This document shows positions 10,641 to 31,672 of a stretch of 42,456 nt of DNA, in pieces. This DNA comes from Dehalococcoidia bacterium (GTDB lineage: Bacteria > Chloroflexota > Dehalococcoidia > GIF9 > UBA5629), in assembly GCA_011170325.1 (NCBI GenBank), contig DUEX01000003.1, positions 16,661 through 59,116 of the forward strand, read 5' to 3'. The notes beneath the pieces are model-generated. The model ran no database searches. It was not told the DNA's origin and saw nothing but the letters and a program-made list of their open reading frames with translations. Positions within the stretch are counted from its first letter, which is position 1, and each line of letters starts with the position of its first letter. The position numbers and the translations under genes are program-made.

Positions 10641-11225
10641 CTACTCTTTGCTCTTACCAGTAGTTACCTGGAGCTCTTTCAGCCTGTACCGGTTTCTAAA
10701 CCCTACAAATACAATAATAGCTAGTGAGTAGAAGATTAGCATTGCTGACCCCTCGAATAGCCAGATAAGCAGGGGCAGGAAAGGAGCGACAATGCAGATC
10801 ATTGAGAAGATACGGCGGGTAAAGAACAAAGCAATACCCATTAGCCCTAAGATGATAGCCATTGCCTCAGGTGCTAGAACAAAAAAAATACCCATGATGG
10901 TGGCTACGCCTTGACCGCCTCTGAAGCCAATGTAGATGGGAAAGCAATGGCCAAGTATAGCGGCAAAGCCAGCTCCCAACAACCAGGGTTGGGAAACGCC
11001 CAGAGTCTGGGCAATAAGTATAGCGGCGACTCCTTTTGCCATATCCGCTAGCGAGACAACAGTGCCTTCCAAAAGGCCAATTTGCCGAAAGACACTGCCA
11101 GCCCCCATGTTGCCTGTGTCAACCTCACGGATGTCTATGCCTCTTCTGAGCTTGGCTACAATGTAAGCTGAGGGGATGGAACCCAGCAGGTAGCCGATGA
11201 GTATGACTGACAGCTCTAATAGCAT
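10641..11225 (-). CDS. plsY: PlsY-family glycerol-3-phosphate acyltransferase, atypical motifs
   Basis: GYLLGSIP, D.AKG and GHCFP...FRGGQGVAT; motif 1 reads DTGNMGAGS and the C-terminal HxxN motif is not evident. Confidence 0.85.
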   Translation of the reverse strand: MLLELSVILIGYLLGSIPSAYIVAKLRRGIDIREVDTGNMGAGSVFRQIGLLEGTVVSLADMAKGVAAILIAQTLGVSQPWLLGAGFAAILGHCFPIYIGFRGGQGVATIMGIFFVLAPEAMAIILGLMGIALFFTRRIFSMICIVAPFLPLLIWLFEGSAMLIFYSLAIIVFVGFRNRYRLKELQVTTGKSKE

Positions 11226-14800: not shown

Positions 14801-15176
14801 CTCTGCTCCAAGCACTAGGCTAACCTTCTATCAACGATTAGCTACTATAAAGCGAGATGAAGAAATAAAAGACATAGCTCGGGAACTGCGTGATAGATTC
14901 GGAGCAGCGCCACAGCCAGTGAAGAACCTCCTTTATATAGTAGAAATAAAACAGCTTGCTGCTGAAGCAGAGGTAGAATCTATTTTCACAGAAGATAAGC
15001 AGATTGTGTTGCGCTTTGATAGTGCAAAGGAATTGGGCAGACTACCTTTATTAGAAGATTATAAAGATGTAGTAAAAATAGGTACCAGACAAATAAAATT
15101 AGACATAAAGCGCCTTAGAAATAGCTGGCAAGAAGTATTAAAGAAGGTACTCCAAAGAATAGCTACAAATACTTAG
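11832..15176 (+). CDS. mfd: Transcription-repair coupling factor
   Basis: UvrB-homology region (RGGIVDIFP), RID (HIEHGI), [35 protein letters not shown]. Confidence 0.98.
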
Positions 15177-15209
15177 CTACTTAGGTAAACTCGTAGCCGC
15201 GGGCAATCC

Positions 15210-15467
15210 CTAGTCCTCTATGCCATAATCGCGAAGATAATCAATAACATCTTGGACTGCAACAATTTTCTCCGTATCTTCGTCTGATATTTCTAACTTT
15301 TGTTCTGGGGTGCTGAACTCCTCCTCTATTGCTGTAATAAGCTCTGCCAGATCAGAAGGACCAACGTTAAGGTCATCAATAAAGGATGCTGAGGGTACTA
15401 CTGATTCCTCATCAGCACCAAGTTGTTCCACAATTACCTTCTTAAGCCGCTCTAAAATGGTTGCCAC
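15210..15467 (-). CDS. Acyl carrier protein homolog lacking the DSL attachment motif
   Basis: AcpP-like throughout ([12 protein letters not shown]...ASFIDDL...EEEF...EISDED.EKI..VQD), but the GADSLD segment reads NVGPSD. Confidence 0.85.
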
Positions 15468-15485
15468 TCTTCATTCCTCTAGGTG

Positions 15486-15950
15486 TCAGACTCGTTTGGT
15501 CCTCTCAATCAGTTCCTGACCTCTTCCTTGCTGTACACAATCAGCGACTACTGAGCCTAAAACTCCGTTAACAAATTTTTGGGAGGTATCACTGCCGAAA
15601 CTCTTAGCTAACTCGACAGCTTCATTAATAGCTGCTTTAACTGGGGTTCTATTATCTAACAAAATCTCAAATATGGCAAGGCGGAGAATATTTCTGTCGA
15701 TAGTAGCTATTTGTTCCACAGGAAAAGCAGGAGCGAATCTTCGAATCGTATCATCAATATCCTCCTTATTCTGAAGAATCCCGGTAACTAGTTCCCGAGT
15801 AAAGTCAGCCGCCTCCTCCGGCAAAGCTTTCTCTTGTAGCAAGCGAGCTAAAACCTCCTCCGGTCCATGAGCGGAACAGTCAATCTCATAAAGTGTCTGT
15901 AAAGCAGCAATTCTGGCTTTGCGTCTGAATCCAGTCACTCTAATACTCAT
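15486..15950 (-). CDS. nusB: Transcription antitermination factor NusB
   Basis: RRKAR.AALQ.LY, DRNILRLA, INEAVELAK.F, FVNGVL. Confidence 0.97.
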   Translation of the reverse strand: MSIRVTGFRRKARIAALQTLYEIDCSAHGPEEVLARLLQEKALPEEAADFTRELVTGILQNKEDIDDTIRRFAPAFPVEQIATIDRNILRLAIFEILLDNRTPVKAAINEAVELAKSFGSDTSQKFVNGVLGSVVADCVQQGRGQELIERTKRV

Positions 15951-17076
15951 CCCCGAACAAGTGAATATTTCCTAGCCGCATACGGTATAATCCAGCCTCT
16001 TTAGCTACTTTTAGGCACCGCTCAGCGTGCTGGAGCGAAGTAGTTGGCAAATCTGTCATCAAGAAATCAGGATGGAAGCCAAGGAGAACATAAGGTATAT
16101 TTGGGTCTAAAGAGGCGATGAATGTAGCAATATTAAAAATTTCCTCTTCGTCTATGTAGCCAGGAATAAGCAAAGTACTAGCTACGAGGAAAGGCGGCGA
16201 AGGTCTCCTCTTAATATAATCAGCCAGAAGGTGGAAATTCTCGAGGGTTCTTTTGTTACTTACTCCGCAAAGGGCAATATGTAACTCCTCACTCCAAGCT
16301 TTAAGGTCGAACTTGATACAACCACCAGAGTTGAGAGAAAGCTCAGCAACTTGCTTAAGTAAAGCTGGATGCATCGAACCATTAGTCTCCCAGCAGATGC
16401 GGAGGATACGCCCTTTACTTTTATCTATAGCTAAGCGGGAGGCACGCAAGGCATGAGGCAATTGCGGTGTTGGGTCACCACCAAAATAACAAATGCAGGA
16501 AGTGTGATCATCAACGGCGTCAGCTAGTTCCGTGGGACTGGCCCAATTCTGTTGCCCTGCTGCCAATCGGTAGTGCCAATTTTGACAGAAGAGGCAGTCA
16601 AAAGAGCAGGCTTGATAAAAAACAGCTAGATTTTTATAACCATGCTCAGGTCCTGGACGGTAAGCAAAGTCGGGATAGCCTGAACCTATGCCACCAGGAC
16701 AAACCCAATCAGCAACGCAGTTCGTAGGTAGCGGGTCATAATACCAGCTTACATTACCTTTCTTAGTAGTAGCACCAGTGAGTTTGCCTGCTATGGATAG
16801 GCGTAAGCCGCAATAACTTCTCTCGCCATCCGAAAGTTGGCATTCATTAAAGCACAGGTGGCAAGCTATACTGCCTTCTGCCTTCGGCGGTTGTGGTGGC
16901 AAGTTGAAAGACTGTCTCGATTCTCGATGAGCTTTTTGGATGAGAGGCGCAACTTTTTCAAAATTCTGGCGGATACAATCAAGACATAAACCCAGGATTT
17001 GAGAAATAAGGACGGATCCCTTGTTGCAATGCATACACCTGGTAGCAGTTTTAAGAGGTAAGTTATGTTTTAGCAT
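15940..17076 (-). CDS. Radical SAM protein (PFL-activase-like/AmmeMemoRadiSam-like) with extra N-terminal Cys clusters
   Basis: CSFDCLFC, FGGDP, ETNG, DLKA motifs; N-terminal CxxC and CxxCxxxC; exact start uncertain. Confidence 0.88.
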   Translation of the reverse strand: MLKHNLPLKTATRCMHCNKGSVLISQILGLCLDCIRQNFEKVAPLIQKAHRESRQSFNLPPQPPKAEGSIACHLCFNECQLSDGERSYCGLRLSIAGKLTGATTKKGNVSWYYDPLPTNCVADWVCPGGIGSGYPDFAYRPGPEHGYKNLAVFYQACSFDCLFCQNWHYRLAAGQQNWASPTELADAVDDHTSCICYFGGDPTPQLPHALRASRLAIDKSKGRILRICWETNGSMHPALLKQVAELSLNSGGCIKFDLKAWSEELHIALCGVSNKRTLENFHLLADYIKRRPSPPFLVASTLLIPGYIDEEEIFNIATFIASLDPNIPYVLLGFHPDFLMTDLPTTSLQHAERCLKVAKEAGLYRMRLGNIHLFGDEY

Positions 17077-17196
17077 TTTTGACTATGGCTCTAGCTTGAA
17101 ATTTAGCCAGTCTGGTGAAGCACAGCTATTACTTGTAGACTGACAAATCTGTTTGCAATTTCGGCAGGCTTTGCCTATGGTCTAAGCAGTGGGCAA

Positions 17197-18141
17197 TCAT
17201 CCCTTACGCCAGCTTGTTACTTCGCTAACAGTTTGAGCATTGCTGACGTTGAAAGTCTGCACTCCTGGACTGATTCGCTTAATCAACCCGGTGAGCACCT
17301 CCCCAGGACCTATCTCAAAGAAAGTAGTTACACCCCTGGCTATCATGTTCTCGACGGATTGCTGCCACTGGACGCAGTGAGCGAGCTGGTTAACGAGTTC
17401 CCCCCTTATTGCTTCAACATCTGTCAGCGGTTGGGCGGTAACATTAGCCACAACCGGAACTGATGGTTTTTGGAAAGTGAATCCTGAGATAGCGTTCTTA
17501 AAACCATCCAAGATTGGTTCCATCAGCACGGAGTGGAAAGCACCGCTTACCTTTAAGGGAATAACTCGGCGGGCACCCTTTATCTGCGCTAGCCTCCTGG
17601 CTTTAACCAGGCTGTCTTGAGCGCCACTGATGACGATTTGACCTGGAGAATTGATATTAGAAATTTCAGTGCCTACAGAGAGACAGATGTCCTTAATGGC
17701 TTCTTCGTCTAGACCAATTATGGCCAGCATCCCACCAGGCTCCCTGCGCCCCGCTTCGTTCATTAATCGTCCTCTCTCGCGAACCAGACGCACCGCGTCA
17801 GGTAGGCTAAGCGCGCCGGCAACCACCAACGCTGTATATTCACCTAAGCTATGCCCAGCAACGAAGGTAGGAGGTGGCAAGTTATCGCCGCTAACCTCTT
17901 GAGCCGCTTTCAGACAAGCAATGCTTGTAGTTAATACTGCTGGCTGAACAGCGATAGTCTGTGTAAGGTCCTCCTCAGGGCCTTCAAAACATAAACGAGA
18001 CAGAGAAAAGCCTAAAGTTTTATCCACTTCATCAAAAACTTCCCTGGCTGAAGAATAGTGAACATAAAGGTCTAAACCCATGCCTACTGCTTGAGACCCT
18101 TGCCCAGGAAAGACATAAGCGACTTTTATCTCTTCGACCAT
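17197..18141 (-). CDS. fabD: Malonyl-CoA:ACP transacylase
   Basis: FPGQGSQ, GHSLGEY, VSGAFHS, EIGPG. Confidence 0.97.
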   Translation of the reverse strand: MVEEIKVAYVFPGQGSQAVGMGLDLYVHYSSAREVFDEVDKTLGFSLSRLCFEGPEEDLTQTIAVQPAVLTTSIACLKAAQEVSGDNLPPPTFVAGHSLGEYTALVVAGALSLPDAVRLVRERGRLMNEAGRREPGGMLAIIGLDEEAIKDICLSVGTEISNINSPGQIVISGAQDSLVKARRLAQIKGARRVIPLKVSGAFHSVLMEPILDGFKNAISGFTFQKPSVPVVANVTAQPLTDVEAIRGELVNQLAHCVQWQQSVENMIARGVTTFFEIGPGEVLTGLIKRISPGVQTFNVSNAQTVSEVTSWRKG

Positions 18142-19100
18142 GTTTCCTCCTCCTTTAATTTGAGTTTACCCAGAGTGCCAATCGTTTTCTCAGCTTCAGA
18201 CATAATATCCTCAATAATTATCTTGACAGGTTTTATTTCTTTTATTAGACCAGCTATCTGACCTGCCATAAGCGAACCATCTTCTATATTACCCTGAATA
18301 ACTCCAGAAAACAACCTTCCACTACCAAATTCCTCCAACTCTGCCTTAGATGCACCAGCTTTCTCCATAGCCATAAATTGGCGTGTCAGCTTATTCTCTA
18401 AACAACGTACTGGGTGTCCTGTCGACTCCCCCGTAACTACTGTAGCTCGATCTTGTGCGGCAAGAATCTGCTCTTTGAATTTTGGATGAGCAATGCACTC
18501 ATCCGAGCAAATAAAGCGCGTCCCCATCTGCACACCTTGAGCTCCAAGAGCTAAAGCTGCTACTAGCCCCTGCCCATTAGCAATCCCACCAGCAGCTATC
18601 ACTGGCACCTTAACACTGTTCACCACTTGAGGCAGCAACGCCATGGTGGCTGTTTCACCAATATGCCCACCTGATTCCATGCCTTCAGCAATAACAGCAT
18701 CTATGCCCAGTCTCTCCAGACGTCGAGCCAAAGCTACACTGGAAATAACTGGCATAACCTTAACCCCGGCTTCTTTCAAGGCAGGAACATGAGCGCCAGG
18801 ATTGCCACCGCCAAAAGTGACAATGTCCACCTTCTCATCCAAAACCACCTTGAGGTTTTCTTTAAGGAAAGGGGACATCAGTAAGATATTAACGGCAAAT
18901 GGTTTATCAGTCCTCTCTCTAGTCAATCTGATTTGGTCTCTTAACCAACTTGAAGGGGCGTCTCCGCTGCCAATTACCCCTAAACCTCCAGCATTGGATA
19001 CCGCTGATACTAACTCAGCTGTCCCAAGCCAGGCCATCCCACCTTGAATAATGGGATATTTAATGTCTAATAACTTACAAAGAGCAAAGTTAGACAGCAT
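18126..19100 (-). CDS. fabK: Enoyl-ACP reductase II (FMN-dependent)
   Basis: YPIIQGGMAW, EG.ESGGHIG, AAGGI, QMGTRF, GSLMAGQ; fab context. Confidence 0.92.
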   Translation of the reverse strand: MLSNFALCKLLDIKYPIIQGGMAWLGTAELVSAVSNAGGLGVIGSGDAPSSWLRDQIRLTRERTDKPFAVNILLMSPFLKENLKVVLDEKVDIVTFGGGNPGAHVPALKEAGVKVMPVISSVALARRLERLGIDAVIAEGMESGGHIGETATMALLPQVVNSVKVPVIAAGGIANGQGLVAALALGAQGVQMGTRFICSDECIAHPKFKEQILAAQDRATVVTGESTGHPVRCLENKLTRQFMAMEKAGASKAELEEFGSGRLFSGVIQGNIEDGSLMAGQIAGLIKEIKPVKIIIEDIMSEAEKTIGTLGKLKLKEEETWSKR

Positions 19101-19461
19101 CACCAATTACAAAGGCAACAGCATATTGTTTACTGTGAGATATAGTGACAGAGAATTCATTTATCCCAATCTCTTTGGCTTTATTCTGGGCTCGGCCATG
19201 AAGCTGAACCAGAGGGACGCCGTCACTATTTGAAAGAATCTCAATATCTCGCCAATTTAAACCCTTGGTACCAGTGCCAAGAGTTTTCATCACAGCTTCC
19301 TTGGCAGCGAAATGGGCGGCTAAACTTGAGGCTACATTATGGCAGTCTTGCAGCTCAGCCTCAGTATAAATACGTTTGAGGAAAGAATTCTGCCAGCTGG
19401 ATATAGCCTGCTCGATACGATTTATCTCTATAATATCAATGCCGACATGTATTCTAGGCAA
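19090..19461 (-). CDS. acpS: Holo-ACP synthase
   Basis: GIDIIE, FAAKEA, ISHS motifs. Confidence 0.95.
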   Translation of the reverse strand: MPRIHVGIDIIEINRIEQAISSWQNSFLKRIYTEAELQDCHNVASSLAAHFAAKEAVMKTLGTGTKGLNWRDIEILSNSDGVPLVQLHGRAQNKAKEIGINEFSVTISHSKQYAVAFVIGDAV

Positions 19462-19479
19462 CTTCGCTAATAATTCCCC

Positions 19480-20715
19480 CTAGCACTCAGAATATCTACG
19501 AATAACGAGAACCGAGTTGTGACCACCGAAACCAAAAGAATTAGAAACAGCTATACGAACATCACTAGCCCTAGCCACATTTGGCACGTAATCCAAGTCA
19601 CATTCTGGGTCAAAATTTTCAAGATTTATCGTTGGTGGTATGATACTGTCATTTATTACTTTACAGCAGACAATTGCCTCAAGTGCTCCAGCAGCGCCAA
19701 GCATATGACCGACCATTGATTTTATTGAGCTAATCGGAATTTCGTATGCCTTGTTGCCAAAAACCTTCTTAATAGCTCTGGTCTCACTTATGTCATTTAG
19801 CGGTGTTGATGTCCCGTGAGCGTTAATATAGTCGACCTTATCACTGTTTACATCGGCTAAAGCAAACTCAATTGCCTTAACCGCTCCCTCACCGCTTTCC
19901 AGTGGTTGAGTGATGTGGTAAGCATCCGATGTGGCTCCATAACCAACAATCTCAGCTAGAATATCAGCGCCTCTTGACCTAGCATAATCGAGACTCTCTA
20001 CAACTAAAACCGCTGCACCCTCACCAATAACAAAGCCATCACGCTTGGCATCGAAAGGTCTCGATGCCTTTTCAGGGTCAGTGCTTCTTGATAATGCGCC
20101 GGCTTGTGAGAAGCCAGCAATACCGATGGGAGTAACAGCAGCATCAGCACCACCCGCAATCATTAGCTTAATCTCACCATATTTAATCATTTTATAGGCT
20201 ATCCCTAAAGTATCCGTCCCTGTTGAGCAAGATGAAACCAAGCTAAAATTTGGCCCCCTAATTCCTGTTTTTATTGATACTTGGCTTGGGGCATTGTCAG
20301 CTATCATCATTGGAACAATATAAGGGCTAACCCTGACTGGTCCTCTTGTATTCAATACCTCAAGCTGTCGTGATAGAGAACTTAAACCGCCAACGCCACT
20401 GCCTATTAGGATGCCAGCATCATATCTATTAGTGTCATCTATTTTGAGCTTAGCGTCCTCAATAGCTTGCAAACTGGCTGCAACAGAAAATTGTGTAAAT
20501 CTATCTGTGTATCGAGCAGTTGTTGGGTCTAAGTAATCAAGTGGGTTGAAGTTCTTTACTTGGGCAGCTATTTTAACATTGAAATCGGTAGCATCGAATA
20601 GACTGATATAGTCCACGCCGGATACACCAGCTACTAACCTTTGCCAAGTGTCTTCAACATTTAAGCCAAGTGGCGTGATAGCTCCGTAGCCAGTAACCAC
20701 AACCCGATTGAACAT
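19480..20715 (-). CDS. fabF: Beta-ketoacyl-ACP synthase II (canonical copy)
   Basis: RVVVTG, GSGVGG, SSCSTG, NAHGTST, GHMLGAAG, SNSFGFGGHN. Confidence 0.96.
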   Translation of the reverse strand: MFNRVVVTGYGAITPLGLNVEDTWQRLVAGVSGVDYISLFDATDFNVKIAAQVKNFNPLDYLDPTTARYTDRFTQFSVAASLQAIEDAKLKIDDTNRYDAGILIGSGVGGLSSLSRQLEVLNTRGPVRVSPYIVPMMIADNAPSQVSIKTGIRGPNFSLVSSCSTGTDTLGIAYKMIKYGEIKLMIAGGADAAVTPIGIAGFSQAGALSRSTDPEKASRPFDAKRDGFVIGEGAAVLVVESLDYARSRGADILAEIVGYGATSDAYHITQPLESGEGAVKAIEFALADVNSDKVDYINAHGTSTPLNDISETRAIKKVFGNKAYEIPISSIKSMVGHMLGAAGALEAIVCCKVINDSIIPPTINLENFDPECDLDYVPNVARASDVRIAVSNSFGFGGHNSVLVIRRYSEC

Positions 20716-20716
20716 C

Positions 20717-20956
20717 TTAGGTTTTTAACTTTGAGTTAATTACAGAGACTATGTCACCAACAGTAGTGATACCCTCTAATTCCTCATCTGGTAGATAGAA
20801 GCCAAAGGCGTCTTCAAGCGCTAATGCAAGCTCTACCATGCCTAGCGAATCTACCTCCAAATCATCATCCAGCAAAGCGCTCAAGACTATTTTACTTTCA
20901 TCAACCCCTGGCTGCACTTTGCAGATAGCCTTCTTGACTTGATCGAATACGTCCAT
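20717..20956 (-). CDS. acpP: Acyl carrier protein
   Basis: DDLEVDSLGMVEL with intact Ser; GAGGAG SD; 1 nt from fabF. Confidence 0.9.
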   Translation of the reverse strand: MDVFDQVKKAICKVQPGVDESKIVLSALLDDDLEVDSLGMVELALALEDAFGFYLPDEELEGITTVGDIVSVINSKLKT

Positions 20957-21053
20957 CTTTGTCTCCTCTGCTTCTTACATGACGTATATAATAAAATACT
21001 TGCAATCTAATAGATTCGTAATAGAGTAGTTCCAAGTCAGAATTATTATTCCT

Positions 21054-21251
21054 CTAGCCAGGCTTTTTCTTCGGGCTCTTAATCTCAATCACTTCCCTGC
21101 CAGCATAACTACCACAAGTAGGACAAACATGATGAGCTAATTTCGGGCTATGACATTGAGGGCAATCAACTAGTGTAGGAATGCTTAGAGCTAGATGACT
21201 GCGCCTTTTGCCTTGACGCGCTTTAGCATACTTTCTCTTTGGTAATGCCAT
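21054..21251 (-). CDS. rpmF: 50S ribosomal protein L32
   Basis: MALPKRK...RRSH...CPQC...HHVCPTCG.Y. Confidence 0.97.
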   Translation of the reverse strand: MALPKRKYAKARQGKRRSHLALSIPTLVDCPQCHSPKLAHHVCPTCGSYAGREVIEIKSPKKKPG

Positions 21252-21762
21252 TTAGACTGCGCTCTCCTTTCTTAAGAAGGACTAATTTTGACCAACGCTG
21301 ATCATGAACTTGAGGTGGACATTGACAGGGGCCTTGGTTAAGATTATGCCCGCAAGATGGACAAATCCCAGCACAATCTGGACGACAAAGCAGCTTCGTA
21401 GGCATAGCTAATAAAGTATATTGGCGTATCACTTCGCTTAAATCTAGCACATGATTACTATCAATGGCAAAGCTATCAGGCTCTTTAGGCAAAGATAAAC
21501 CCTTGGATGTGTCCATGCTAGGAAGGAATTCATCCTCCAGGTCAAAGTTAACTGAACAATCAGCGGAATTAAGGCATCGACTGCAGACCCCTGTGACATT
21601 GGCAGTCATTGTACCTTTGACCAAAATGCCTCGATTGGTATGAGTTAAGGTCACCTCACCTTTAATGGAATTTGTGCCTTCTTTACCAACGAGCTCATTT
21701 ATTTGATAACTACGAGTTGAGCCTACTGGCTCTTTAAGTAATTGGGCAACATTAATACGCAT
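21223..21762 (-). CDS. yceD: YceD/DUF177 family protein
   Basis: CSRCL, LC.PDC.GICP.CG.NLN, D.RW; upstream of rpmF; start moved to ATG 21762 because the ORF-track TTG is the -35 box. Confidence 0.92.
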   Translation of the reverse strand: MRINVAQLLKEPVGSTRSYQINELVGKEGTNSIKGEVTLTHTNRGILVKGTMTANVTGVCSRCLNSADCSVNFDLEDEFLPSMDTSKGLSLPKEPDSFAIDSNHVLDLSEVIRQYTLLAMPTKLLCRPDCAGICPSCGHNLNQGPCQCPPQVHDQRWSKLVLLKKGERSLNGITKEKVC

Positions 21763-21781
21763 TTCATTACAAAGTTGGCTT

Positions 21782-21810
21782 ATTATAGGTTGAGTTGCCT
21801 GTGGTGTCAA
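21782..21810 (-). promoter_or_regulatory. Perfect-consensus sigma70 promoter for yceD-rpmF(-fab)
   Basis: Minus strand TTGACA-17 nt-TATAAT. Confidence 0.88.
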
Positions 21811-21871
21811 GTGGCTGTGCTAGCCTAATGGCTATGCAACCGCCTGCTGAAATAGGAGGTGCATCTCAGGC

Positions 21872-22711
21872 TCAGACTTGTTCCACCAGCGCTACACCTA
21901 TAGCATGAGGACCGGTATGGGCACCAACTACTGGCCCGAAGACAAACCGACGTATATTCTCCATCGGGAATATAGAGCTCAGGCGCTGAGCAAACGCCTC
22001 GGCCTTGTCAGGGGTAGTGGCCTGTTCCACTGCTAATGCTCTGATGTTGTCAAATCCTTTGACGAAGTTATACAGCCAGTCAAGTGCTTTCTCACGGCTG
22101 CGTGTCCGGGCAATGCCCTCGACTAAGCCATCGATAATTCCGATGATAGGGTTTATCTTGAGCACTGAGCCCATGAACGCCTGAGCGGTACCGATGCGCC
22201 CACCTTGATGCAGATACTCCAGCGTGTCAAAACAGATACGGGTGTGAGTCTTGGGTATGAATTTCCGTATCACATCCATTATCTGGTCTAGGCTGGCTCC
22301 CAGTTTAGCTTCCTCAGCGGCTATCATAACCAGAAGCGCCTGACCGGCTATTGTGGTCAGGGTATCAATTACCTCCACTCGGCAGTCCTTTCGCTTCCTT
22401 AGTTCCAGGCCCTCGATTGCCGATTCATAAGTGGCGCTTAACTTTGCTGAGATTGTTAGTGCCAACACCTCACTGGTCTCTTCAGCTAGCTTATCGTAAG
22501 CCTCGGCAAAAGCCCCGGCTGGCGGAGCACCGGTAGTGGGAAACACCTTGTCCTTTGCTAGCCTATAGAAGAGTTCTGCTGGCTGTATGTCGAGCCTATC
22601 GCGGTACGACTCGCCTCCAAAATTGACCCACAGAGGTGCCACCGTGACGCCCAGTTCACGGGCCATCTCGGGTGTAATATCGGAAGTGCTGTCTGTTACT
22701 ATCTTGACCAT
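21872..22711 (-). CDS. DegV/FakB fatty-acid-binding protein
   Basis: IVTDSTSD, IS.KLSATY, L..GGRIG, GAHTGP. Confidence 0.95.
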   Translation of the reverse strand: MVKIVTDSTSDITPEMARELGVTVAPLWVNFGGESYRDRLDIQPAELFYRLAKDKVFPTTGAPPAGAFAEAYDKLAEETSEVLALTISAKLSATYESAIEGLELRKRKDCRVEVIDTLTTIAGQALLVMIAAEEAKLGASLDQIMDVIRKFIPKTHTRICFDTLEYLHQGGRIGTAQAFMGSVLKINPIIGIIDGLVEGIARTRSREKALDWLYNFVKGFDNIRALAVEQATTPDKAEAFAQRLSSIFPMENIRRFVFGPVVGAHTGPHAIGVALVEQV

Positions 22712-22730
22712 GATACCTCCGTTTATATTG

Positions 22731-23162
22731 CTAATCCGTAGCTTTTGATCTCCTCACTACGTACCATAGAGATGAACTCTTAGCTATAATTGTGCTGTCT
22801 TTTAGGGAGAGGGTGGCTTCAGTCTCAACCAGCCTTGATGTCTTTTTGGTAATCTGAGCTGAAACTTGAATTGGCTCATCAATAGGTGCTAGGTTGGCAA
22901 ATCTAACCTCACTCTTAACGGTAATGCAATTCAATCCTGCGTAGATAACAGCATAACCGGCTGCCTCATCAAGAAGAGTACATAGAATGCCGCCATGGGT
23001 TATTCCTGGCCAGCCTTGATGAAATTTCCCTGGGGTAAATTCTCCCTTGACTATCCCTCCGTCATCAGTAAATTGCAGCTTTAACCCTATGGGATTATCT
23101 TTGCCGCAGGCAAAGCAGAGACTACCAGTGGCGTCGCCGATTTTCGGCTGCGGAATTTGCAT
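22731..23162 (-). CDS. PaaI-family hotdog thioesterase
   Basis: CFACG..NP.GL and HQGWPGITHGG...LLDE. Confidence 0.9.
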   Translation of the reverse strand: MQIPQPKIGDATGSLCFACGKDNPIGLKLQFTDDGGIVKGEFTPGKFHQGWPGITHGGILCTLLDEAAGYAVIYAGLNCITVKSEVRFANLAPIDEPIQVSAQITKKTSRLVETEATLSLKDSTIIAKSSSLWYVVRRSKATD

Positions 23163-23261
23163 CTCATCCTCTCTCTAATGTTTTCTCTGACATCGTTATA
23201 CTATGTATTTGTCTAAGTGCAATACTCCCCCATTAGTATTTCTATAGCTCATAGCCTGATT

Positions 23262-24014
23262 CTAGGTTATTACACCACCGTCTACATTAATGACCTGCCC
23301 GGTGATATAATTAGCGCGGTCACTGGCAAGAAAGGCCACTACTTCCGCCACATCTTCAGACGTGCCGAAGCGCTGTAGTGGTATTTGAGATAATATAGAC
23401 TCCTTTAACTCAGAGGACAACTTGGCTGTCATTTCTGTGGTTATGAAGCCCGGGGCTACAGCATTCACGGTTATGTTACGGGAACCTAATTCCCGAGCCA
23501 AGCTTTTAGTGAAAGCGATGAGTCCGCCTTTAGAAGCTGCGTAGTTGCTCTGCCCCACATTACCGGTTAATCCGGCAACAGAAGCGATATTGATAATGCG
23601 CCCCCACTGTTGGTTCATCATGGAGCGTAAGGCAAACTTAGTGCAAAGATAGGCACCACGCAGGTTAGTATCAATCACGCTATCCCAGGCTTCATCGGGC
23701 ATTCTCAGCAGCAGATTGTCCATGGTGATGCCGGCATTATTTACTAAGATGTCGATCTTGCTCCATTTGTCAGTTATTTGATGCACCATGGCCCTGACTA
23801 GATCGCTATCTCGAACATCCGCTGGCGTTAGTATGGCTTCACCGCCTTGGCTTATGATAGATGACATTACATCCTTGGCTTCAGCCTCTCGGTTTAGGTA
23901 ATTAATAGCTACTTTGGAACCCATGCCAGACAACTTTAAAGCAATAACCCTGCCCAAGCCACGGGATGCGCCGGTGACCAGTGATACCTTGGCCGAAAGT
24001 TCCAAAGAAGACAT
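23262..24014 (-). CDS. fabG: 3-oxoacyl-ACP reductase
   Basis: TGASRGLG, NNAGIT.D, GQSNYAASK, VAPGFI.T.MT. Confidence 0.96.
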   Translation of the reverse strand: MSSLELSAKVSLVTGASRGLGRVIALKLSGMGSKVAINYLNREAEAKDVMSSIISQGGEAILTPADVRDSDLVRAMVHQITDKWSKIDILVNNAGITMDNLLLRMPDEAWDSVIDTNLRGAYLCTKFALRSMMNQQWGRIINIASVAGLTGNVGQSNYAASKGGLIAFTKSLARELGSRNITVNAVAPGFITTEMTAKLSSELKESILSQIPLQRFGTSEDVAEVVAFLASDRANYITGQVINVDGGVIT

Positions 24015-24018
24015 TTTA

Positions 24019-25251
24019 TTACCCGGTGAAGCGTTTTAAGACCAGACAGCAGTTTTGGCCACCCATGCCAAATGAGTTGGAGAGACAAACATTTACTTCA
24101 GCCCGGCGCGCCACATTGGGGACATAGTCTAAATCACACTCAGGATCGGGGATCTCGTAATTCACCGTTGGTGGAATAATTGCGGAGTTTATGGTTAAGA
24201 TTGAGGCGATAGCTTCGATAGCGCCAGCCGCAGTTATTATATGTCCAATCATAGATTTATTAGAGCTGACGGGGATTTTGTAGGCATGCTTGCCGAAGAC
24301 GGTTTTAATAGCCTTAGTTTCGCTAGCATCATTGAGCTTAGTGCTGGTGCCATGAGTGTTTATATAATCAACATCCTCAGGTGCTATCCCAGCGCCCTTA
24401 AGAGCGCCACTCATGGCTATAGCTTCTACTTCGGGGTCAGGAGCGGCTTCATTGTAAGCGTCAAAGGAGCGAGAGGCTCCAGCAAGTTCAGCCAAAATGG
24501 GTGCTCCCCGGCTCATAGCATGTTCTAAGGTTTCTAAGATCAATATAGCGGCACCTTCGCCATAAACAAAGCCATTACGGTTAAGGTCAAAGGGGCGAGA
24601 AGCCTTGGCTGGGTCCGCCTCCCGAGATAAAGCGCCAACAAGCCCCATACCGGCTATAGGTAGCTCAGCTATAGCGGCGTCGGTTCCTCCAGCTAACATG
24701 ACATCGGCATAGCCTAACTGAATGTAATCGTTGGCGGTGGCCAAGGCATCGGCGCCGCTGGCACAGGCGGTGTTTACACTCGAATTAGGCCCCTTAGCCC
24801 CGAACAATATACCTACTTGCACCGATGCCATATGAGGTCCTATCCTGGTAATAAATAGAGGGCTTATCCTCTTTGGGCCACGGCTCTTAAGCACTTCATG
24901 CTCCTCAACGATTCCACGGATGTCGATACTGGTAGCAATGGAAACGCCTATGCGCTCGGAACTTTCTGTTGAGAAATCTAGCTTGGCTGACTCAACTGCC
25001 ATCTTGGTTGCGGCGATGGCAAACTGGGTGAACCTAGCGGTTCGGTCGACCATTTTTGTATCCATGTATTTTGCTGGCTCAAAGTTGGGCACTTCAGCAG
25101 CTATCTTCACTGGGAAATTAGTGGCATCAAATTGAGTGATGTAACCAATGCCTGACTTTCCGGCAGTCAACCCAGCCCAGAATTCATCTACGGTCATGCC
25201 TAAAGGCGTGACCGCTCCCATACCGGTGACAACAACTCGACGCTTAGGGAT
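24019..25251 (-). CDS. fabF: Second, divergent FabF-type ketosynthase; apparent ATC start
   Basis: TACASG, THGTST, GHIITAAG and SNSFG motifs; conserved PKRRVVVTG lies upstream of the first ATG (25221), after an AAGGAG SD. Confidence 0.9.
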   Translation of the reverse strand: MPKRRVVVTGMGAVTPLGMTVDEFWAGLTAGKSGIGYITQFDATNFPVKIAAEVPNFEPAKYMDTKMVDRTARFTQFAIAATKMAVESAKLDFSTESSERIGVSIATSIDIRGIVEEHEVLKSRGPKRISPLFITRIGPHMASVQVGILFGAKGPNSSVNTACASGADALATANDYIQLGYADVMLAGGTDAAIAELPIAGMGLVGALSREADPAKASRPFDLNRNGFVYGEGAAILILETLEHAMSRGAPILAELAGASRSFDAYNEAAPDPEVEAIAMSGALKGAGIAPEDVDYINTHGTSTKLNDASETKAIKTVFGKHAYKIPVSSNKSMIGHIITAAGAIEAIASILTINSAIIPPTVNYEIPDPECDLDYVPNVARRAEVNVCLSNSFGMGGQNCCLVLKRFTG

Positions 25252-25288
25252 GATATCTCCTTTTATTTACCGTTTATACTCCTAAGAA

Positions 25289-26056
25289 TCAGTAAGCGGT
25301 TTGAGAAGGTGCCAGAGATAGTCCACCATCGATGATAATAGTCTGTCCTCGTATCATATAAGCCTGGTCACTGCAGAGGAAAGCTACTATATTAGCCACG
25401 TCGGCAGCAGTTACCATTCTACCGGCCGGGGTCATTTGCCATCTGGCGCCTGCTCCTGCCTGCTCATCAGCATAGAGTTTTAGTGCCTCTGTCTGCACTG
25501 CAGCTGCGGCTACTGAATTGACGCTGATGCCTTTTGGAGCTAATTCTATGGCTAAATACCGGGTTAGTGCCTCCAGAGCAGCCTTAGATATGCCAACGGC
25601 AGCATAACTGGGCCAGACGAGGGAAGAGCCTAAGCTTGAGATAGCAACTATTTTGCCGTCTCTACCTTCCATAAGCTTAGCCGCTCGTTGGGCACAAAAT
25701 AGAAAGGCTTTGGCATTGATATCCATTGTCCAATCCCAAGCTTGGCTATCTAGCTCTAAAACGGAGCGGGCGACGCCTGAGGCAGCATTGTTGATAAGTA
25801 TGTCAAGCCGTCCAAAATCGTTGCTTATGGTCTCAAACATGCTATCGATTTTTTCAATTTCACCAACATGAGCTTTAATAATTCGGGCAGTGCCCCCTTT
25901 GCTTGCTGCCTCTGCGGCAGTTTGCTCCGCTGCCTGGCGATGGCGGAAAAAATTGATTATAACATCAGCTCCTTCTTCAGCCAGTCTAAGCACTATTGCC
26001 CGACCAATGCCCCGAGAGCCGCCAGTTACTAGAGCTACTTTGCCCTTAAGAGACAT
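25289..26056 (-). CDS. fabL: Enoyl-ACP reductase III (FabL-type SDR)
   Basis: NNAASGV, WDWTM.INAKA.LFCAQ.AAKLM, ISSLGS, Y-x6-K (YAAVGISK), AALEALTRYLA.EL, matching Bacillus FabL as recalled. Confidence 0.88.
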   Translation of the reverse strand: MSLKGKVALVTGGSRGIGRAIVLRLAEEGADVIINFFRHRQAAEQTAAEAASKGGTARIIKAHVGEIEKIDSMFETISNDFGRLDILINNAASGVARSVLELDSQAWDWTMDINAKAFLFCAQRAAKLMEGRDGKIVAISSLGSSLVWPSYAAVGISKAALEALTRYLAIELAPKGISVNSVAAAAVQTEALKLYADEQAGAGARWQMTPAGRMVTAADVANIVAFLCSDQAYMIRGQTIIIDGGLSLAPSQTAY

Positions 26057-26068
26057 CTCTTAGCCACC

Positions 26069-26314
26069 TTAACTAGCTTGACGTCGGTCAATATAATTCA
26101 GCATATCACCAAAATTGGTGAGCGTTTCTGCATCCTCATCCGAGATTTCAATCCCGAAGGCGTCTTCTAGAGCAACCAATATCTGCACTAGGTCAAGCGA
26201 ATCAGCATCTAAATCCTTCCAGGTAGTTTGAGGAGTCAGGTTGTCCTCATTACAATGCACTATTCCGGTAATGATGCCTTTTATAGTTTGCTCGATAGAC
26301 TTAGTCCTTTCCAT
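26069..26314 (-). CDS. Acyl carrier protein
   Basis: DLDADSLDLVQI with intact Ser; overlaps the plsX stop. Confidence 0.92.
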   Translation of the reverse strand: MERTKSIEQTIKGIITGIVHCNEDNLTPQTTWKDLDADSLDLVQILVALEDAFGIEISDEDAETLTNFGDMLNYIDRRQAS

Positions 26315-27311
26315 TGTGTAGCTGCCTCCTAATCCTTATTAACTCCGAGTTTAGACTATTTACCAGACCAGATTCGACCATGGTCTTCGCTTGAGCTATA
26401 GCCCTGGTAAACTGTAAAGCTTGGCTACGCCCGTGCATTACCATAGCCACACCATTGACCCCTAGCAAAGGTCCACCACCAAATATATCAGCAGTATTGG
26501 TTAGAGCAAGTAAATCATTGCTCACCCTATCGATTTCAGTATTTGATAACTTCCCACTCAGGCTGGTTTTCAGCCACTTGGCAATAGTGGCTCCTAAACC
26601 CTCGCAGAATTTTACCAAGATATTGCCTACAAAGCCATCACAGACAATCACATTAGCTCGACCGGTGACAATATCATTTCCTTCTACATTGCCAATAAAA
26701 TTTAAGCCACTTCTTTGAAAAAGGGGATAACTTTCCTTAACCAGTTCGTTTCCCTTACCTTCCTCAGCGCCGACACTGAGCAATGCCACAGTGGGGTTTG
26801 GGATATTTAATAATTTCTGGGCATAAACACAACCTACAATAGCAAAGTTTAAAAGGTGATAAGGCTTGCAGTCAACATTACCTCCGTTATCCAACACAAT
26901 TGTATTTGGGCTAAAGCCCAGGAAGTTACCACCAATCACTGGGCGGTCTATACCTTCAGGGGTACCTAAAATCATCAGAGCACTAGCGACTACCGTTCCT
27001 GTGGGACCAGCACTGATTATGGCATCAGCCTCTCCATTTTTCACCAGCTTTGTTGCCACGATTACCGAGGCGTTACGCTTCTGACGCAGTACCAGAGCCG
27101 GTGGTTCACCTTCTTTAACAGACTCATCTGCATTAATACAGTTGATAGCCAGATGAGAAACATCATACTTGACTAGCTCTGCCTGCAATGTGGGCAGTGG
27201 ACCGACCAAAATAACTTCTAATCCTTTCTCTTGAACGGCTGAAACTGCACCCTTGATTACCTCATTAGGTGCATAGTCGCCACCCATGGCGTCTACAGCT
27301 ATCCTGACCAT
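26301..27311 (-). CDS. plsX: Phosphate acyltransferase PlsX
   Basis: IAVDAMGGDYAP, EEGKGN, FIGNVEG, DGFVGN, HGRS. Confidence 0.97.
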   Translation of the reverse strand: MVRIAVDAMGGDYAPNEVIKGAVSAVQEKGLEVILVGPLPTLQAELVKYDVSHLAINCINADESVKEGEPPALVLRQKRNASVIVATKLVKNGEADAIISAGPTGTVVASALMILGTPEGIDRPVIGGNFLGFSPNTIVLDNGGNVDCKPYHLLNFAIVGCVYAQKLLNIPNPTVALLSVGAEEGKGNELVKESYPLFQRSGLNFIGNVEGNDIVTGRANVIVCDGFVGNILVKFCEGLGATIAKWLKTSLSGKLSNTEIDRVSNDLLALTNTADIFGGGPLLGVNGVAMVMHGRSQALQFTRAIAQAKTMVESGLVNSLNSELIRIRRQLHNGKD

Positions 27312-27314
27312 TTT

Positions 27315-27779
27315 TTATCTACTGGCATCTTCTAATGCCACCTCGCTATTTAGCGGTGTTTTAACCATTGCTTCTCCGGTCACTATCGTCTCTTGATTCT
27401 GATTGTGACAGCTTACACTGCAACTAAAATTAAGACTGTTATTCTCTACCGCGACAGAGTTAACCTTCCCAGTGACACTGATGGTATCTTTAGACCGAGC
27501 CGGCGCCTTAAATCGAACTGCCAACTTACCTGCTGAAGACCAGCTTTCCCCAAAGGCTAGCGTCATCATTTCCGATACATAGGCTAAAATGAGCATGCCA
27601 TGGGCAATAGTGCCACCAAAGGCAGTCTGAGCAGCAAATGACTCGTTGACATGGATTGGGTTAAAGTCAGCAGAAGCTTCGGCATAAAGATTTATCTTCT
27701 CCTGGCTAAGATGCTTCACTATTTCAGGTAGGGCATCCCCGGGGTGTAATTTCGGAAGCTTAGAGCCGGATAAAGTCAT
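27315..27779 (-). CDS. MaoC-family (R)-specific dehydratase, catalytic subunit (HadB-like)
   Basis: Hydratase-2 motif YAEASADFNPIH...FGGTIAHGML. Confidence 0.9.
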   Translation of the reverse strand: MTLSGSKLPKLHPGDALPEIVKHLSQEKINLYAEASADFNPIHVNESFAAQTAFGGTIAHGMLILAYVSEMMTLAFGESWSSAGKLAVRFKAPARSKDTISVTGKVNSVAVENNSLNFSCSVSCHNQNQETIVTGEAMVKTPLNSEVALEDASR

Positions 27780-27791
27780 TTTGGATTACCT

Positions 27792-28175
27792 TCAGTTGGG
27801 TAAGATTAAAGTTGTCTTCCCAGAAAGAACTAATTCCTCATCTTGGTCAAAGGTGGTAAGCTCGATTACCAGCATACTTAATTTGGTGCGGCTTAGCTTC
27901 TGTACAACTCGGGACTGACAACATATGCGTGAGCCAACAGTTACTGGCTTGAAGAACTCTAATTCCTGTGAGGCGTGAACTGAGCCAGGCGGCATATTAA
28001 TGGACTGGGAGACCGCTTTCATGGTATAAGCGGCAATCGCAAAGGGTGGGGCGAAGCTGGCAACTGGTGAATGAGCCTCTACCGCTTCTTCATACTTGGA
28101 AATAATCGAAGGGGTGAGCTCATAGTTAACAGGCGGCAACTCATAGCCCACTTTTAATTCTTCATACCTTATCAT
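27792..28175 (-). CDS. MaoC-like hotdog protein, non-catalytic partner (HadA-like)
   Basis: APP...VHASQELEFFKPV.VG pattern; no D-x-NPIH motif. Confidence 0.8.
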   Translation of the reverse strand: MIRYEELKVGYELPPVNYELTPSIISKYEEAVEAHSPVASFAPPFAIAAYTMKAVSQSINMPPGSVHASQELEFFKPVTVGSRICCQSRVVQKLSRTKLSMLVIELTTFDQDEELVLSGKTTLILPN

Positions 28176-28194: not shown

Positions 28195-28223
28195 AGTATA
28201 AGATTACCTCAAGATTAAGTCAA
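28195..28223 (-). promoter_or_regulatory. Sigma70 promoter of the maoC-plsX-acp-fabL-fabF2-fabG operon
   Basis: Minus strand TTGACT-17 nt-TATACT. Confidence 0.75.
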
Positions 28224-28395: not shown

Positions 28396-29601
28396 GTGGT
28401 GAAAAAGGCTTTGGCGAAGGATGAATTAAAGGCAGAGGTAAATAAGCAAGTAGAGTTTCACCGCCACGAACTTATTGAATTAAGCCTTAGGATTCATGCC
28501 AATCCTGAGCTAGGATTCAAGGAGGAGAAGGCATCGGCTTGGTTAACCGGTTATCTCGAGAAAAATGGGTTCCAGGTGGAAAAAGGTACAGGAGGTTTGC
28601 CCACATCTTTCAAAGCAGTCTACAGCAAAGGCAAACCGGTTATTGCTTTGCTGGCTGAGTACGATGCCTTGCCTGAAGTCGGACATGCCTGTGGGCACAA
28701 TATAATAGCTGCCTCAGCAGTAGGAGCCGGTGTGGCTAGTAGATGTATTGTTGATAACTATGGTGGGACAGTTGCCGTTTTTGGTACTCCTGCAGAGGAG
28801 CTTTTTGGTGGTAAAGTAACCATGTTGCAAGCTGGAGCTTTTGATGGACTGGATGTAGCCATGATAGTACATCCTGGAGTGCGAAATATGGCAACTACTG
28901 AAGCACTTGCTTGTATTAGCTTGGAGATTGAATTTATTGGTAAAGCAGCTCATGCTGCTGCTCATCCTGAGCAGGGAATCAATGCTCTGGAAGCTGTGGT
29001 TTTAGCTTTTAATGCCGTAAACTCACTTCGCCAACATATTAAAGACAAAGCCCGTATCCATGGTATAATTACCTCTGGTGGTGAAGCCGCTAACATAGTG
29101 CCAGCTTACTCCTCAGCTAAATTACTAGTCCGTGCTTCAGACAACGCCTATCTTGACGAACTAAAGCAAAAGGTTCTAAACTGTTTTAGTGGAGCCTCAC
29201 TAGCTACTGGAGCTCGGTTGGACTACAAATGGGGGGAAATAATCTACGCTCCGATGAACAATAACTTGTTCCTAGCCCAGCTCTTCTCCCAAAATCTCAA
29301 ATCTTTAGGCCGCAAGATAGAACCTTTTGAGCCTCGCTTTGGTTTTGGCAGCACCGATATGGGTAATGTTAGCCAAGTTATACCTGCCATTCACCCTTCA
29401 GTTGCTATTGCCTCTCCCGGCATATCGCTGCACTCAACGGATTTTGCCCTAGCTGCTGCCTCTGAAGCAGGACATAAGGGGCTGCTAGATGCTGCTAAAG
29501 TTCTGGCTATGACAGTCGTCGACCTTCTCAGTGAACCTGAGACGTTGGCTAAGGTCAAGGATGAATTTTCTCACAGCCATGACAAAAGTTGGTATTCCTA
29601 G
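28396..29601 (+). CDS. M20 family amidohydrolase (ACY1L2/AbgB-like)
   Basis: IH.NPELG, EYDALP, HACGHN, GTPAEE, HP, GSTDMGNVS; start approximate. Confidence 0.93.
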   Translation: MVKKALAKDELKAEVNKQVEFHRHELIELSLRIHANPELGFKEEKASAWLTGYLEKNGFQVEKGTGGLPTSFKAVYSKGKPVIALLAEYDALPEVGHACGHNIIAASAVGAGVASRCIVDNYGGTVAVFGTPAEELFGGKVTMLQAGAFDGLDVAMIVHPGVRNMATTEALACISLEIEFIGKAAHAAAHPEQGINALEAVVLAFNAVNSLRQHIKDKARIHGIITSGGEAANIVPAYSSAKLLVRASDNAYLDELKQKVLNCFSGASLATGARLDYKWGEIIYAPMNNNLFLAQLFSQNLKSLGRKIEPFEPRFGFGSTDMGNVSQVIPAIHPSVAIASPGISLHSTDFALAAASEAGHKGLLDAAKVLAMTVVDLLSEPETLAKVKDEFSHSHDKSWYS

Positions 29602-31668: not shown

Positions 31669-31672
31669 GGCT

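Follow-up and report, generated by a model that had tools for sequence, protein, structure and literature searches.

FAS-II, the type II fatty-acid synthase, is regarded as one of the most uniform pathways of bacteria and is an antibiotic target. How, then, might a bacterium make fatty acids from a gene cluster that holds three acyl carrier proteins (ACPs), two FabF ketosynthases and two different enoyl reductases, and neither FabH nor FabZ? The question is raised by positions 15210-28175 of a 42,456-nucleotide stretch (the window) of contig DUEX01000003.1, from the Dehalococcoidia assembly GCA_011170325.1. A preliminary description, made from the letters alone, placed 19 genes on the minus strand of this region; all 19 are there, and the names given by Pfam and NCBIfam agree with its gene list. 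It read the region as two modules, each with its own ACP, ketosynthase and enoyl reductase, and proposed two parallel acyl lines with FabH-independent priming, for example initiation versus elongation. Our analysis suggests one composite FAS-II built from three evolutionary layers, primed without FabH and containing a second line formed by FabF2 and ACP1, a reading to which sequence comparison gives, in our judgment, an even chance. Below, G000 is the window's own genome (1.82 Mb, 92.16% complete, 135 contigs), f1 is its family, L numbers denote loci and C numbers contigs of G000, the window being part of C59.

The preliminary description had noted the absence of fabH and fabZ from the window, had recommended a search of the full genome, and had regarded their presence elsewhere as evidence against it. 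Neither was found in G000: within this 92.16%-complete genome, the best match to the FabH model TIGR00747 reached 35.5 bits against a cut-off of 292, and a PF07977 search for FabA/FabZ gave no match. Each is also absent from most genomes of a class sample, consisting of 151 evenly drawn Dehalococcoidia genomes that are at least 90% complete. FabH scores over the cut-off in 36/151 and FabA/FabZ (PF07977) occurs in 64/151; 71 genomes have neither, and 67 of these carry at least one FabF. With G000 92.16% complete and divided among 135 contigs, both genes might be supposed to lie in the unassembled 8% of the genome. We consider this extremely improbable, because closed one-contig genomes of another family, f35, have neither FabH nor FabZ (and exactly one FabF), and because no FabZ and no over-cut-off FabH were found in nine genomes of the window's order that are 97-100% complete. 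PF07977 itself is matched in 0/4 class-sample genomes of the same family and 0/5 of the same order. The absence of FabH and FabZ is typical of the class and does not reflect assembly gaps.

The weak FabH-model matches in G000 were considered as a hidden FabH and rejected. Two proteins with an ACP_syn_III_C match (C92:16876-18318 and C114:12665-14092) are HMGCS-like proteins of about 480 aa fused to DUF35, combining an HMGCS/KAS III-like thiolase-fold domain with DUF35 zinc-ribbon and OB domains, and the best FabH-model match in the genome belongs to such a fusion. The C114 fusion is followed by a thiolase-like gene (a 400-aa frame, identified by a weak KAS III-model match alone), and the arrangement of the C92 and C114 fusions resembles the archaeal thiolase/HMGCS/DUF35 complexes. 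Weak KAS III-model matches in frames of about 480 aa recur throughout the class (Pfam-checked in these two only), and family mates lacking FAS-II also give weak FabH-model matches, with seven in G010 and three in G057. The fusions, which we do not class as FabH, are a possible source of acetoacetyl units. In the available part of a preprint on an archaeal DUF35 fatty-acid synthase, Chloroflexi are named once, as a sister group in trees.

The earlier proposal of a dehydratase other than FabZ is reasonable, given that PF07977 has no match and that a HadAB-like pair of MaoC-type genes is present. The hadA-like and hadB-like genes lie 12 nt apart. The HadB-like protein carries the hydratase-2 motif D-x-N-P-x-H, which is lacking in the HadA-like protein. 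In the PDB, the HadB-like protein matches PhaJ (1iq6), human mitochondrial HTD2 (3ir3), and mycobacterial HadB (4rlj_B), and the HadA-like protein has a weak match (4rv2_A, E 0.054). Both miss the equivalog cut-offs, with 28.6 bits against 180 for the HadA model (NF040624/NF010246 pair) and 48 against 203 for the HadB model; the term HadAB-like is therefore used here for function only, not as an assignment to the HadAB family. Across the class sample, HadB-like proteins (E<=1e-20) occur in 55/151 genomes and FabZ in 64/151, with both together in only six, a near-complementary distribution, as one would expect if the two were alternative enzymes for a single step. We suggest that the MaoC pair fills the role of FabZ in this FAS-II, with a heterodimer and dehydratase activity as predictions.

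Mycobacterial HadAB is a partner of FAS-I in mycolate elongation. The window's pair resembles the mycobacterial HadAB and HadBC (PDB 4RLJ, 5ZY8) in its adjacent genes for single hot-dog subunits, in the Asp/His motif confined to the second subunit, and in its FAS-II setting. It differs from HadAB in scoring far below the equivalog cut-offs, in being as near to PhaJ and HTD2 as to HadB, and in being the sole predicted dehydratase of a membrane-lipid FAS-II.

Mapping the conservation of the cluster, as had been recommended, reveals three layers rather than two modules: a class-wide core operon, a family-specific block, and an order-wide cassette. The core operon, yceD-rpmF-fabD-(radical SAM)-nusB-acpP, is found in seven genomes of five other families and in 4/4 family mates examined, G038 having fabG in it as well and G120 having the radical SAM gene. 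In order mates nothing lies between rpmF and fabD, where the window has acp2-fabF1-acpS-fabK. The resulting order rpmF-acp2-fabF1-acpS-fabK-fabD-nusB-acp3 recurs in the family members G190 and G206, and the acp2-fabF1-acpS-fabK block is located elsewhere, with its own fabD copy, in G157, G159, G154, G213, and G210. ACP2 orthologs (59-78% identical) are confined to the same family and all have DSL; the search for one outside the family yielded, from the class sample, only a 49% match in G060. What had been described as module 2 is hence not a single unit, as it consists of the class-wide core operon with the family block inserted.

The third layer is the cassette hadA-hadB-plsX-acp1-fabL-fabF2-fabG(-thioesterase-degV). 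It is complete in nine of the 13 public contigs with FabF2 orthologs (58-73% identity), two others being cut by contig ends and L045 and L053 differing, and it is also present in G090, G105, and G180. DSL is kept in the ACP1 orthologs of all cassettes read, DegV follows fabG in most of them, and the thioesterase gene is found only in the window and L043. The position of the cassette varies: it lies on another contig in G090 and about 20 kb off in G105, and abuts the core operon in G000 only.

Two artifacts that could have produced this arrangement were ruled out. Chimeric joining of the two modules was rejected on the evidence of independent metagenome contigs, as the degV/yceD junction is bridged in three public DNA runs from three studies (X1 21073-25206, X2 21073-24240, and X3 20859-22609), one of which is possibly the source sample of the window. 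Further contigs cover the radical SAM gene to acp2 (X1 16301-20941) and mfd-acp3-nusB-radical SAM-fabD (X2 15030-18411), and four public contig records differ from the window by 0-18 letters. Mis-binning was rejected on two grounds: the Mfd proteins of the window and of the family mate G057 share 70% identity, and four family mates show synteny in the flanks. Among named organisms, FabF2 has its closest relatives in Dehalococcoidia and Dehalococcoidales metagenome-assembled genomes (MAGs).

FabG and the dehydratase are encoded by the cassette alone and FabD and AcpS by the other unit alone, and no closer paralogs exist elsewhere in G000; neither unit is therefore autonomous. The two-module description holds in that each unit has its own ACP, ketosynthase, and enoyl reductase, and fails in that the remaining enzymes are split between them. 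The single-copy status given to FabD, FabG, AcpS, and the dehydratase was borne out. In tblastn searches of G000 with the window proteins, FabD, AcpS, FabF, and ACP1/2/3 had no further copy; identity is at most 38-44% for the nearest FabG/FabL-like paralogs of the short-chain dehydrogenase/reductase (SDR) type (at most 38% for FabG paralogs) and at most 34% for the nearest MaoC paralogs. AcpS is the single match to PF01648 for phosphopantetheinyl transferases (PPTases), and PF00109 matches only the two FabF and thiolase-like proteins, with no other KAS I/II. A weak fourth PP-binding match (30.6 bits) was seen at C14:2841-3017 on the minus strand, in an open frame of 111 aa, and shares 37% identity with ACP2 across 59 residues.

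Three ACP genes are present, as previously described, but the third lacks the canonical attachment serine. The ACP3 site reads VGPSDL, with Pro in the canonical serine column in place of an Asp-Ser-Leu attachment site. In 151/151 class genomes there is an ortholog of ACP3, 85 aa long and sharing its five-residue insert, which adjoins nusB where examined, and the site NADSLDLVEL is present in 28/28 orthologs read outside the family. Judged by sequence and synteny, ACP3 is the ancestral AcpP. In the 34 family genomes read, the canonical serine column holds Pro in 24, Ala in six, Gly in two, and Ser in two (G190 and G206), and the next position holds Ser in 18 (including G000, GPSD), Pro in six, Ala in four, Glu in three, Asp in two, and Asn in one. 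Serine is at neither position in 14/34, and five of these 14 genomes are FabF-positive; as both positions lack serine, ACP3 is not the FAS carrier in those five. In G000, too, ACP3 is very probably not a carrier. The gene itself is intact in 71/77 family genomes, including 32/32 high-quality ones.

The two ketosynthases are 50% identical and both have the Cys-His-His triad. In a FabF tree of 51 rows (IQ-TREE quick search, SH-aLRT support only), a 99% clade groups FabF1 and eight family orthologs together with Thermogemmatispora, the G004 FabF that is linked to Mfd, and the one FabF that f35 genomes carry. From this placement, FabF1 is a vertically inherited housekeeping enzyme. A class search for FabF1 at E<=1e-170 was too strict, returning G132 only, and the family search was used instead. 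FabF2 belongs to a separate 100% clade of 18 rows; the 16 with readable flanks are part of a cassette, full or partial, L045 and L053 being different. The genes of a third clade (99%), FabF3, lie beside a second plsX in other members of the family and the order and are absent from G000; the FabF3 motifs are GFGG, which is kept, GTAVG, and GHMWG (L187-L190 and L194, corresponding to G157, G159, G154, G213, and G210; also L023 and L024). In G159, fabD and plsX are separated by a gene for an enoyl-CoA hydratase of the crotonase family, and this may be the dehydratase or isomerase of the FabF3 variant.

GFGG is the gating loop and GSGIGG the pocket loop of FabF. Both are canonical in FabF1 and in ten outgroup FabF proteins. 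In the FabF2 clade, GFGG is replaced by GMGG in 15/18 and GLGG in 3/18, and the GSGIGG loop is one residue shorter in 18/18 (A-T/S-S/T; ATS-I in the window's FabF2), with Cys, His, His, and Lys kept. These loop changes point to a different acyl or ACP specificity. A clade-wide gate change and a shorter pocket loop around an intact triad might also befit a dedicated initiating ketosynthase, analogous to FabH or FabY, with FabF1 performing elongation only, and the class-sample genomes with the cassette (G000, G090, and G105) all lack an over-cut-off FabH. Such a role for FabF2 is unlikely in our view: 20/115 FabH-negative class genomes have a single FabF, which is of the FabF1 type where placed on the tree; mean FabF copy number is equal by FabH status, at 2.25 with FabH (n=36) and 2.30 without it (n=115); and the FabF-positive genomes G159, G154, G213, and G210 have FabF1 and FabF3 but no FabF2. 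The split between initiation and elongation offered in the preliminary description is thus not required.

It is also conceivable that the two sets of ACP, ketosynthase, and enoyl reductase are redundant and became adjacent through relocation of the cassette, with no division of labor. The duplicate enoyl reductases FabI and FabL are redundant in Bacillus subtilis, the cassette sits at varied places in G090, G105, and G000, and FAS-II shows patchy gain or loss within the family and its genera. By contrast, the FabF2 signature is kept in 18/18 clade members, the cassette ACP has DSL in all orthologs read, and gene order is kept across at least 12 genomes or contigs. Because all three are conserved, we argue for a selected, distinct function of the cassette and regard redundancy as a minor, though real, possibility.

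The radical SAM gene within the operon raises the idea that one set makes a non-membrane product, such as octanoyl-ACP for lipoate, a biotin precursor, or a lipid made by the radical SAM enzyme. The gene adjoins nusB-acpP in 12/14 other genomes that have it. It is, however, found in only 15/151 class genomes, is missing from the same operon in G190 and G206, and survives in G057 only as a remnant of 56 aa; a search of G000 for LipA found none, and the presence of plsX within the cassette and of plsY close by links the products with phospholipid synthesis. We therefore judge a non-membrane product to be very unlikely. The radical SAM gene recurs, at 70% identity, as a solitary second copy on a 3.3 kb contig (C132:272-1405), and loose ends occur at 16347-16599, within the window's radical SAM gene, in all four public runs placed on the window. 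These observations are compatible with a shared segment or strain variants.

In the composite FAS-II that we favor, the core operon would supply FabD, still active, its AcpP (ACP3) no longer acting as a carrier. The family block would supply the working carrier ACP2, the only PPTase, the canonical ketosynthase FabF1, and the enoyl reductase FabK, and the cassette would supply the only ketoreductase, the HadAB-like dehydratase, a second carrier, a second enoyl reductase, and the remodelled ketosynthase FabF2. AcpS would activate ACP1 and ACP2, and FabD would load malonate on both. A FabF-type enzyme would then decarboxylate malonyl-ACP to acetyl-ACP and condense it, amounting to de novo priming without FabH; FabF1 would be the likeliest primer, since its orthologs stand alone as ketosynthase in other Dehalococcoidia that lack FabH. 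FabG, the HadAB-like pair, and FabK or FabL would complete each cycle, with FabG and HadAB serving both ketosynthases. The FabF2/ACP1/PlsX/DegV cassette would form a second line for entry and elongation, differing in acyl specificity; FakA/FakB and a reversible PlsX would plausibly load it with fatty acids obtained by salvage, and this loading is the weakest step. Products would leave via PlsX, PlsY, and PlsC.

FabH-independent priming is supported by inference and is reasonable, as fabH was not found in the genome or in most of the class; two parallel acyl lines are unproven. Precedents for priming of this kind are described in the available portions of reports on Pseudomonas putida FabB, a KAS I/II that primes itself by malonyl-ACP decarboxylation (PMC10869286), and on the malonyl-ACP decarboxylase MadA/YiiD, which provides FabH-independent initiation (PMC8666670). 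Those organisms have FabH as well, whereas the Dehalococcoidia are largely without it. The cluster's thioesterase was considered as a Mad-type decarboxylase and rejected: in a search of this protein, rather than a genome-wide search for Mad, only 4HBT and 4HBT_3 matched at E<=10, with no YiiD_C match, and its nearest solved relatives are THEM4/THEM5.

Compared with the canonical FAS-II of Escherichia coli and Bacillus, the window is similar in having discrete FabD, FabG, KAS II, enoyl reductases, ACP, and AcpS that score over their cut-offs, and in its yceD-rpmF and plsX linkage, which is as in Bacillota and Deltaproteobacteria (L056-L059). It differs in that FabH, FabZ, and FabA are missing, a MaoC-type pair is present, and no biotin carboxylase was found, and also in having two working ACPs alongside a serine-less AcpP and two KAS II enzymes, one of them gate-altered.

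Several observations weigh against the composite FAS-II as we propose it. First, no biotin carboxylase domain (PF02785, Biotin_carb_C) was found in G000, nor in 11 other FabF-positive family genomes, several of which are >90% complete, leaving the source of malonyl-CoA unexplained and de novo synthesis not secured. Within the family, PF02785 is present in 21/33 FabF-positive and 36/44 FabF-negative genomes. An acetyl-CoA carboxylase or transcarboxylase was sought near the five carboxyltransferase genes of G000 and rejected, there being no biotin carrier or carboxylase among the neighbors examined. Second, the role proposed for FabF2 is drawn only from gene neighborhood and motif changes, and plsX beside fab genes is a canonical arrangement as well (L056-L059). 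Third, 38/151 class genomes have neither FabZ nor a HadB-like protein (E<=1e-20), and 34 of these 38 have FabF; the class therefore holds at least one further solution for dehydration. Finally, ACP3 of G000 has a serine one position past the canonical site (GPSD), and modification there leaves a small doubt about its loss of carrier function.

Salvage of fatty acids is the other route by which this organism might obtain acyl chains. PlsX is known to be reversible from work on Firmicutes. The genome encodes FakA beside a DegV on C44, a second PlsX with PlsY and DegV on C97, about eleven further DegV/FakB paralogs, about nine extra PlsY-like matches, and two PlsC-type genes; the extra DegV, PlsY-like, PlsX, and FakA genes are spread over C44, C97, C70, C18, C118, C4, C24, C103, C2, C58, C133, C135, C48, C73, and C96. 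The gene set represents heavy investment in the binding of fatty acids and the use of acyl phosphates. Given FakA, many DegV, a second PlsX, and many PlsY-like genes, scavenging is a likely reason that FAS-II is dispensable in the family. With FakA by a DegV, about 12 DegV in all, two PlsX, and several PlsY-like genes, G000 is comparable to the FakA/FakB (DegV) and PlsX route of Firmicutes, whereas the loading of ACP1 for FabF2 in this way in Dehalococcoidia is inference only. According to the available part of a study of Enterococcus faecalis, loss of FabH can be bypassed by exogenous fatty acids (PMC13372179).

The family is indeed divided in its possession of FAS-II. A FabF-type enzyme (E<=1e-80) is found in 32/76 other family genomes, 29 of the 32 having a FabF1 ortholog (64-80% identity), and its distribution is patchy even within genera (7/14 in g3, 1/17 in g2, and 1/6 in g4) and among high-quality genomes (14/32). 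The four FAS-less mates examined (G057, G010, G074, and G149) have no acp2, fabF1, acpS, or fabK and no cassette, and PF01648 gave no PPTase match in any of the four. The 56-aa radical SAM remnant in G057 points to deletion. FabD persists in these mates and is 65-72% identical to that of the window, but its catalytic serine is changed to Asp or Gly (GHDVGT at L038 in G057, GHGCGE at L040 in G010, GHGAGE at L041 in G074, and GHGSGE at L042 in G149) and PGQGSQ is altered; this altered FabD adjoins a serine-less ACP and NusB. In G000, alignment shows both FabD catalytic motifs to be intact.

The chances seem to us evenly balanced that in this family the ancestral AcpP and FabD were recruited to a job other than acyl carriage, both lying within the ribosome/transcription operon yceD-rpmF...nusB. 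The two proteins, although altered at their active serines, remain otherwise intact and conserved in the four FAS-less mates. In this reading G000 would be the informative intermediate, with a serine-less AcpP, an intact FabD, and a complete FAS-II equipped with the replacement carriers ACP2 and ACP1 and their own AcpS. If true, this would give the mitochondrial ACP of malaria parasites, which has no cofactor, a counterpart among bacteria, and would offer a natural system in which to look for the non-carrier roles long suspected of ACP. As far as the accessible text describes it, the mitochondrial ACP of Plasmodium falciparum is without phosphopantetheine (PMC8547962), and the likeness to ACP3 lies in the lost cofactor serine, the retained ortholog, and a lineage in which FAS-II is lost or dispensable. 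ACP3 differs from what is described there in being bacterial, in its location in a ribosomal/transcription operon with fabD and nusB, and, in G000, in standing beside a FAS-II that would be run by replacement ACPs.

We found no published account of these findings in the open literature on Dehalococcoidia fatty-acid synthesis or serine-less ACPs, a search that did not cover subscription journals. A whole class that is largely without the textbook starter FabH and often without FabZ, including an order that would use a HadAB-like pair and a gate-changed ketosynthase, offers concrete candidates for FabH-independent priming. The 'incomplete FAS-II' calls in metabolic reconstructions of Dehalococcoidia are accordingly systematic and not due to assembly gaps. 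A family polymorphic for FAS-II and rich in FakB and PlsY suggests that bacteria of marine sediments are spread along a gradient between lipid self-sufficiency and scavenging, and the family's serine-less AcpP, present in every high-quality family genome, provides a handle on ACP roles beyond acyl carriage.

The features of the window are listed in Table 1.

Table 1. Positions of the genes for fatty-acid synthesis, their operon partners, and putative promoters in the window.
Feature	Position	Strand	Evidence
Promoter-like site upstream of hadA	28195..28223	-	TTGACT-17-TATACT, 10/12; consensus match only
HadA-like subunit, putatively non-catalytic, single hot-dog, 127 aa	27792..28175	-	Pfam FAS1_DH_region
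HadB-like subunit, putative catalytic MaoC dehydratase, 154 aa, DFNPIH	27315..27779	-	PF01575, E 4.8e-21
PlsX phosphate acyltransferase	26301..27311	-	TIGR00182, 284 bits vs cut-off 243.4
ACP1, cassette carrier, canonical DSL (DADSLD)	26069..26314	-	Pfam and NCBIfam, site read
FabL-type enoyl-ACP reductase	25289..26056	-	NF005975, 344.1 bits vs cut-off 328
FabF2, divergent KAS II	24019..25251 (ATG-based frame 24019-25221)	-	TIGR03150, 499.4 bits vs 493.75
FabG 3-oxoacyl-ACP reductase, sole close copy in G000	23262..24014	-	TIGR01830, 339 bits vs 297.75
Hot-dog (4HBT) thioesterase, THEM4/5-like	22731..23162	-	Pfam 4HBT, PDB relatives
DegV/FakB-like fatty-acid-binding protein	21872..22711	-	PF02645, TIGR00762
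Sigma-70 consensus, perfect 12/12 TTGACA-17-TATAAT, 20 nt 5' of probable yceD start	21782..21810	-	
YceD (DUF177), probable start ATG 21762	21223..21762	-	PF02620
Ribosomal protein L32 (rpmF)	21054..21251	-	TIGR01031
ACP2, family-specific, predicted working carrier, DSL (EVDSLG)	20717..20956	-	Pfam and NCBIfam, site read
FabF1, canonical housekeeping KAS II	19480..20715	-	TIGR03150, 581.9 bits vs 493.75
AcpS, only PPTase found in G000	19090..19461	-	Pfam and NCBIfam
FabK FMN-dependent enoyl-ACP reductase	18126..19106	-	TIGR03151, 457 bits vs 453.1
FabD malonyl-CoA:ACP transacylase, GHSLGE and PGQGSQ intact	17197..18141	-	TIGR00128, 341 bits vs 261
Radical SAM protein, CxxxCxxC, Cys-rich N-terminus, variable occupant of fabD-nusB slot	15940..17076	-	
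NusB	15486..15950	-	TIGR01951
ACP3, serine-replaced ortholog of class-wide AcpP	15210..15467	-	NF002148, 80.1 bits vs cut-off 71
PlsY acyl-phosphate:glycerol-3-phosphate acyltransferase	10641..11225	-	PF02660; uses PlsX product

Both promoters named in the preliminary description exist as sites, although the total of promoter-like sites in the region, 25 against 21.4 +/- 4.5 in shuffles, is not above chance. The public runs listed for the window include no RNA run. The yceD frame extends upstream of ATG 21762, and the ortholog in G057 has a stop codon within this extension. For fabF2, no ATG, GTG, or TTG occurs between the in-frame stop at 25269-25267 and ATG 25221, which sits within VVVTG-M-G, a conserved motif; alignments to the FabF profile and to the orthologs reach further upstream, and an AAAGGAG Shine-Dalgarno sequence lies 5 nt ahead of an ATC at 25251. 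The start is probably this rare ATC codon, or else the letters contain a base error.

The FAS genes have as neighbors, at 29531-32638 (plus strand), two genes for DUF2229 'CoA enzyme activase' proteins and one for a BcrAD/BadFG-type ATPase. Six further loci of Dehalococcoidia (L048, L049, L055, L156, L158, and L195) likewise have BcrAD-like genes beside the cassette or core operon, and three of the six include a DUF2229 homolog.

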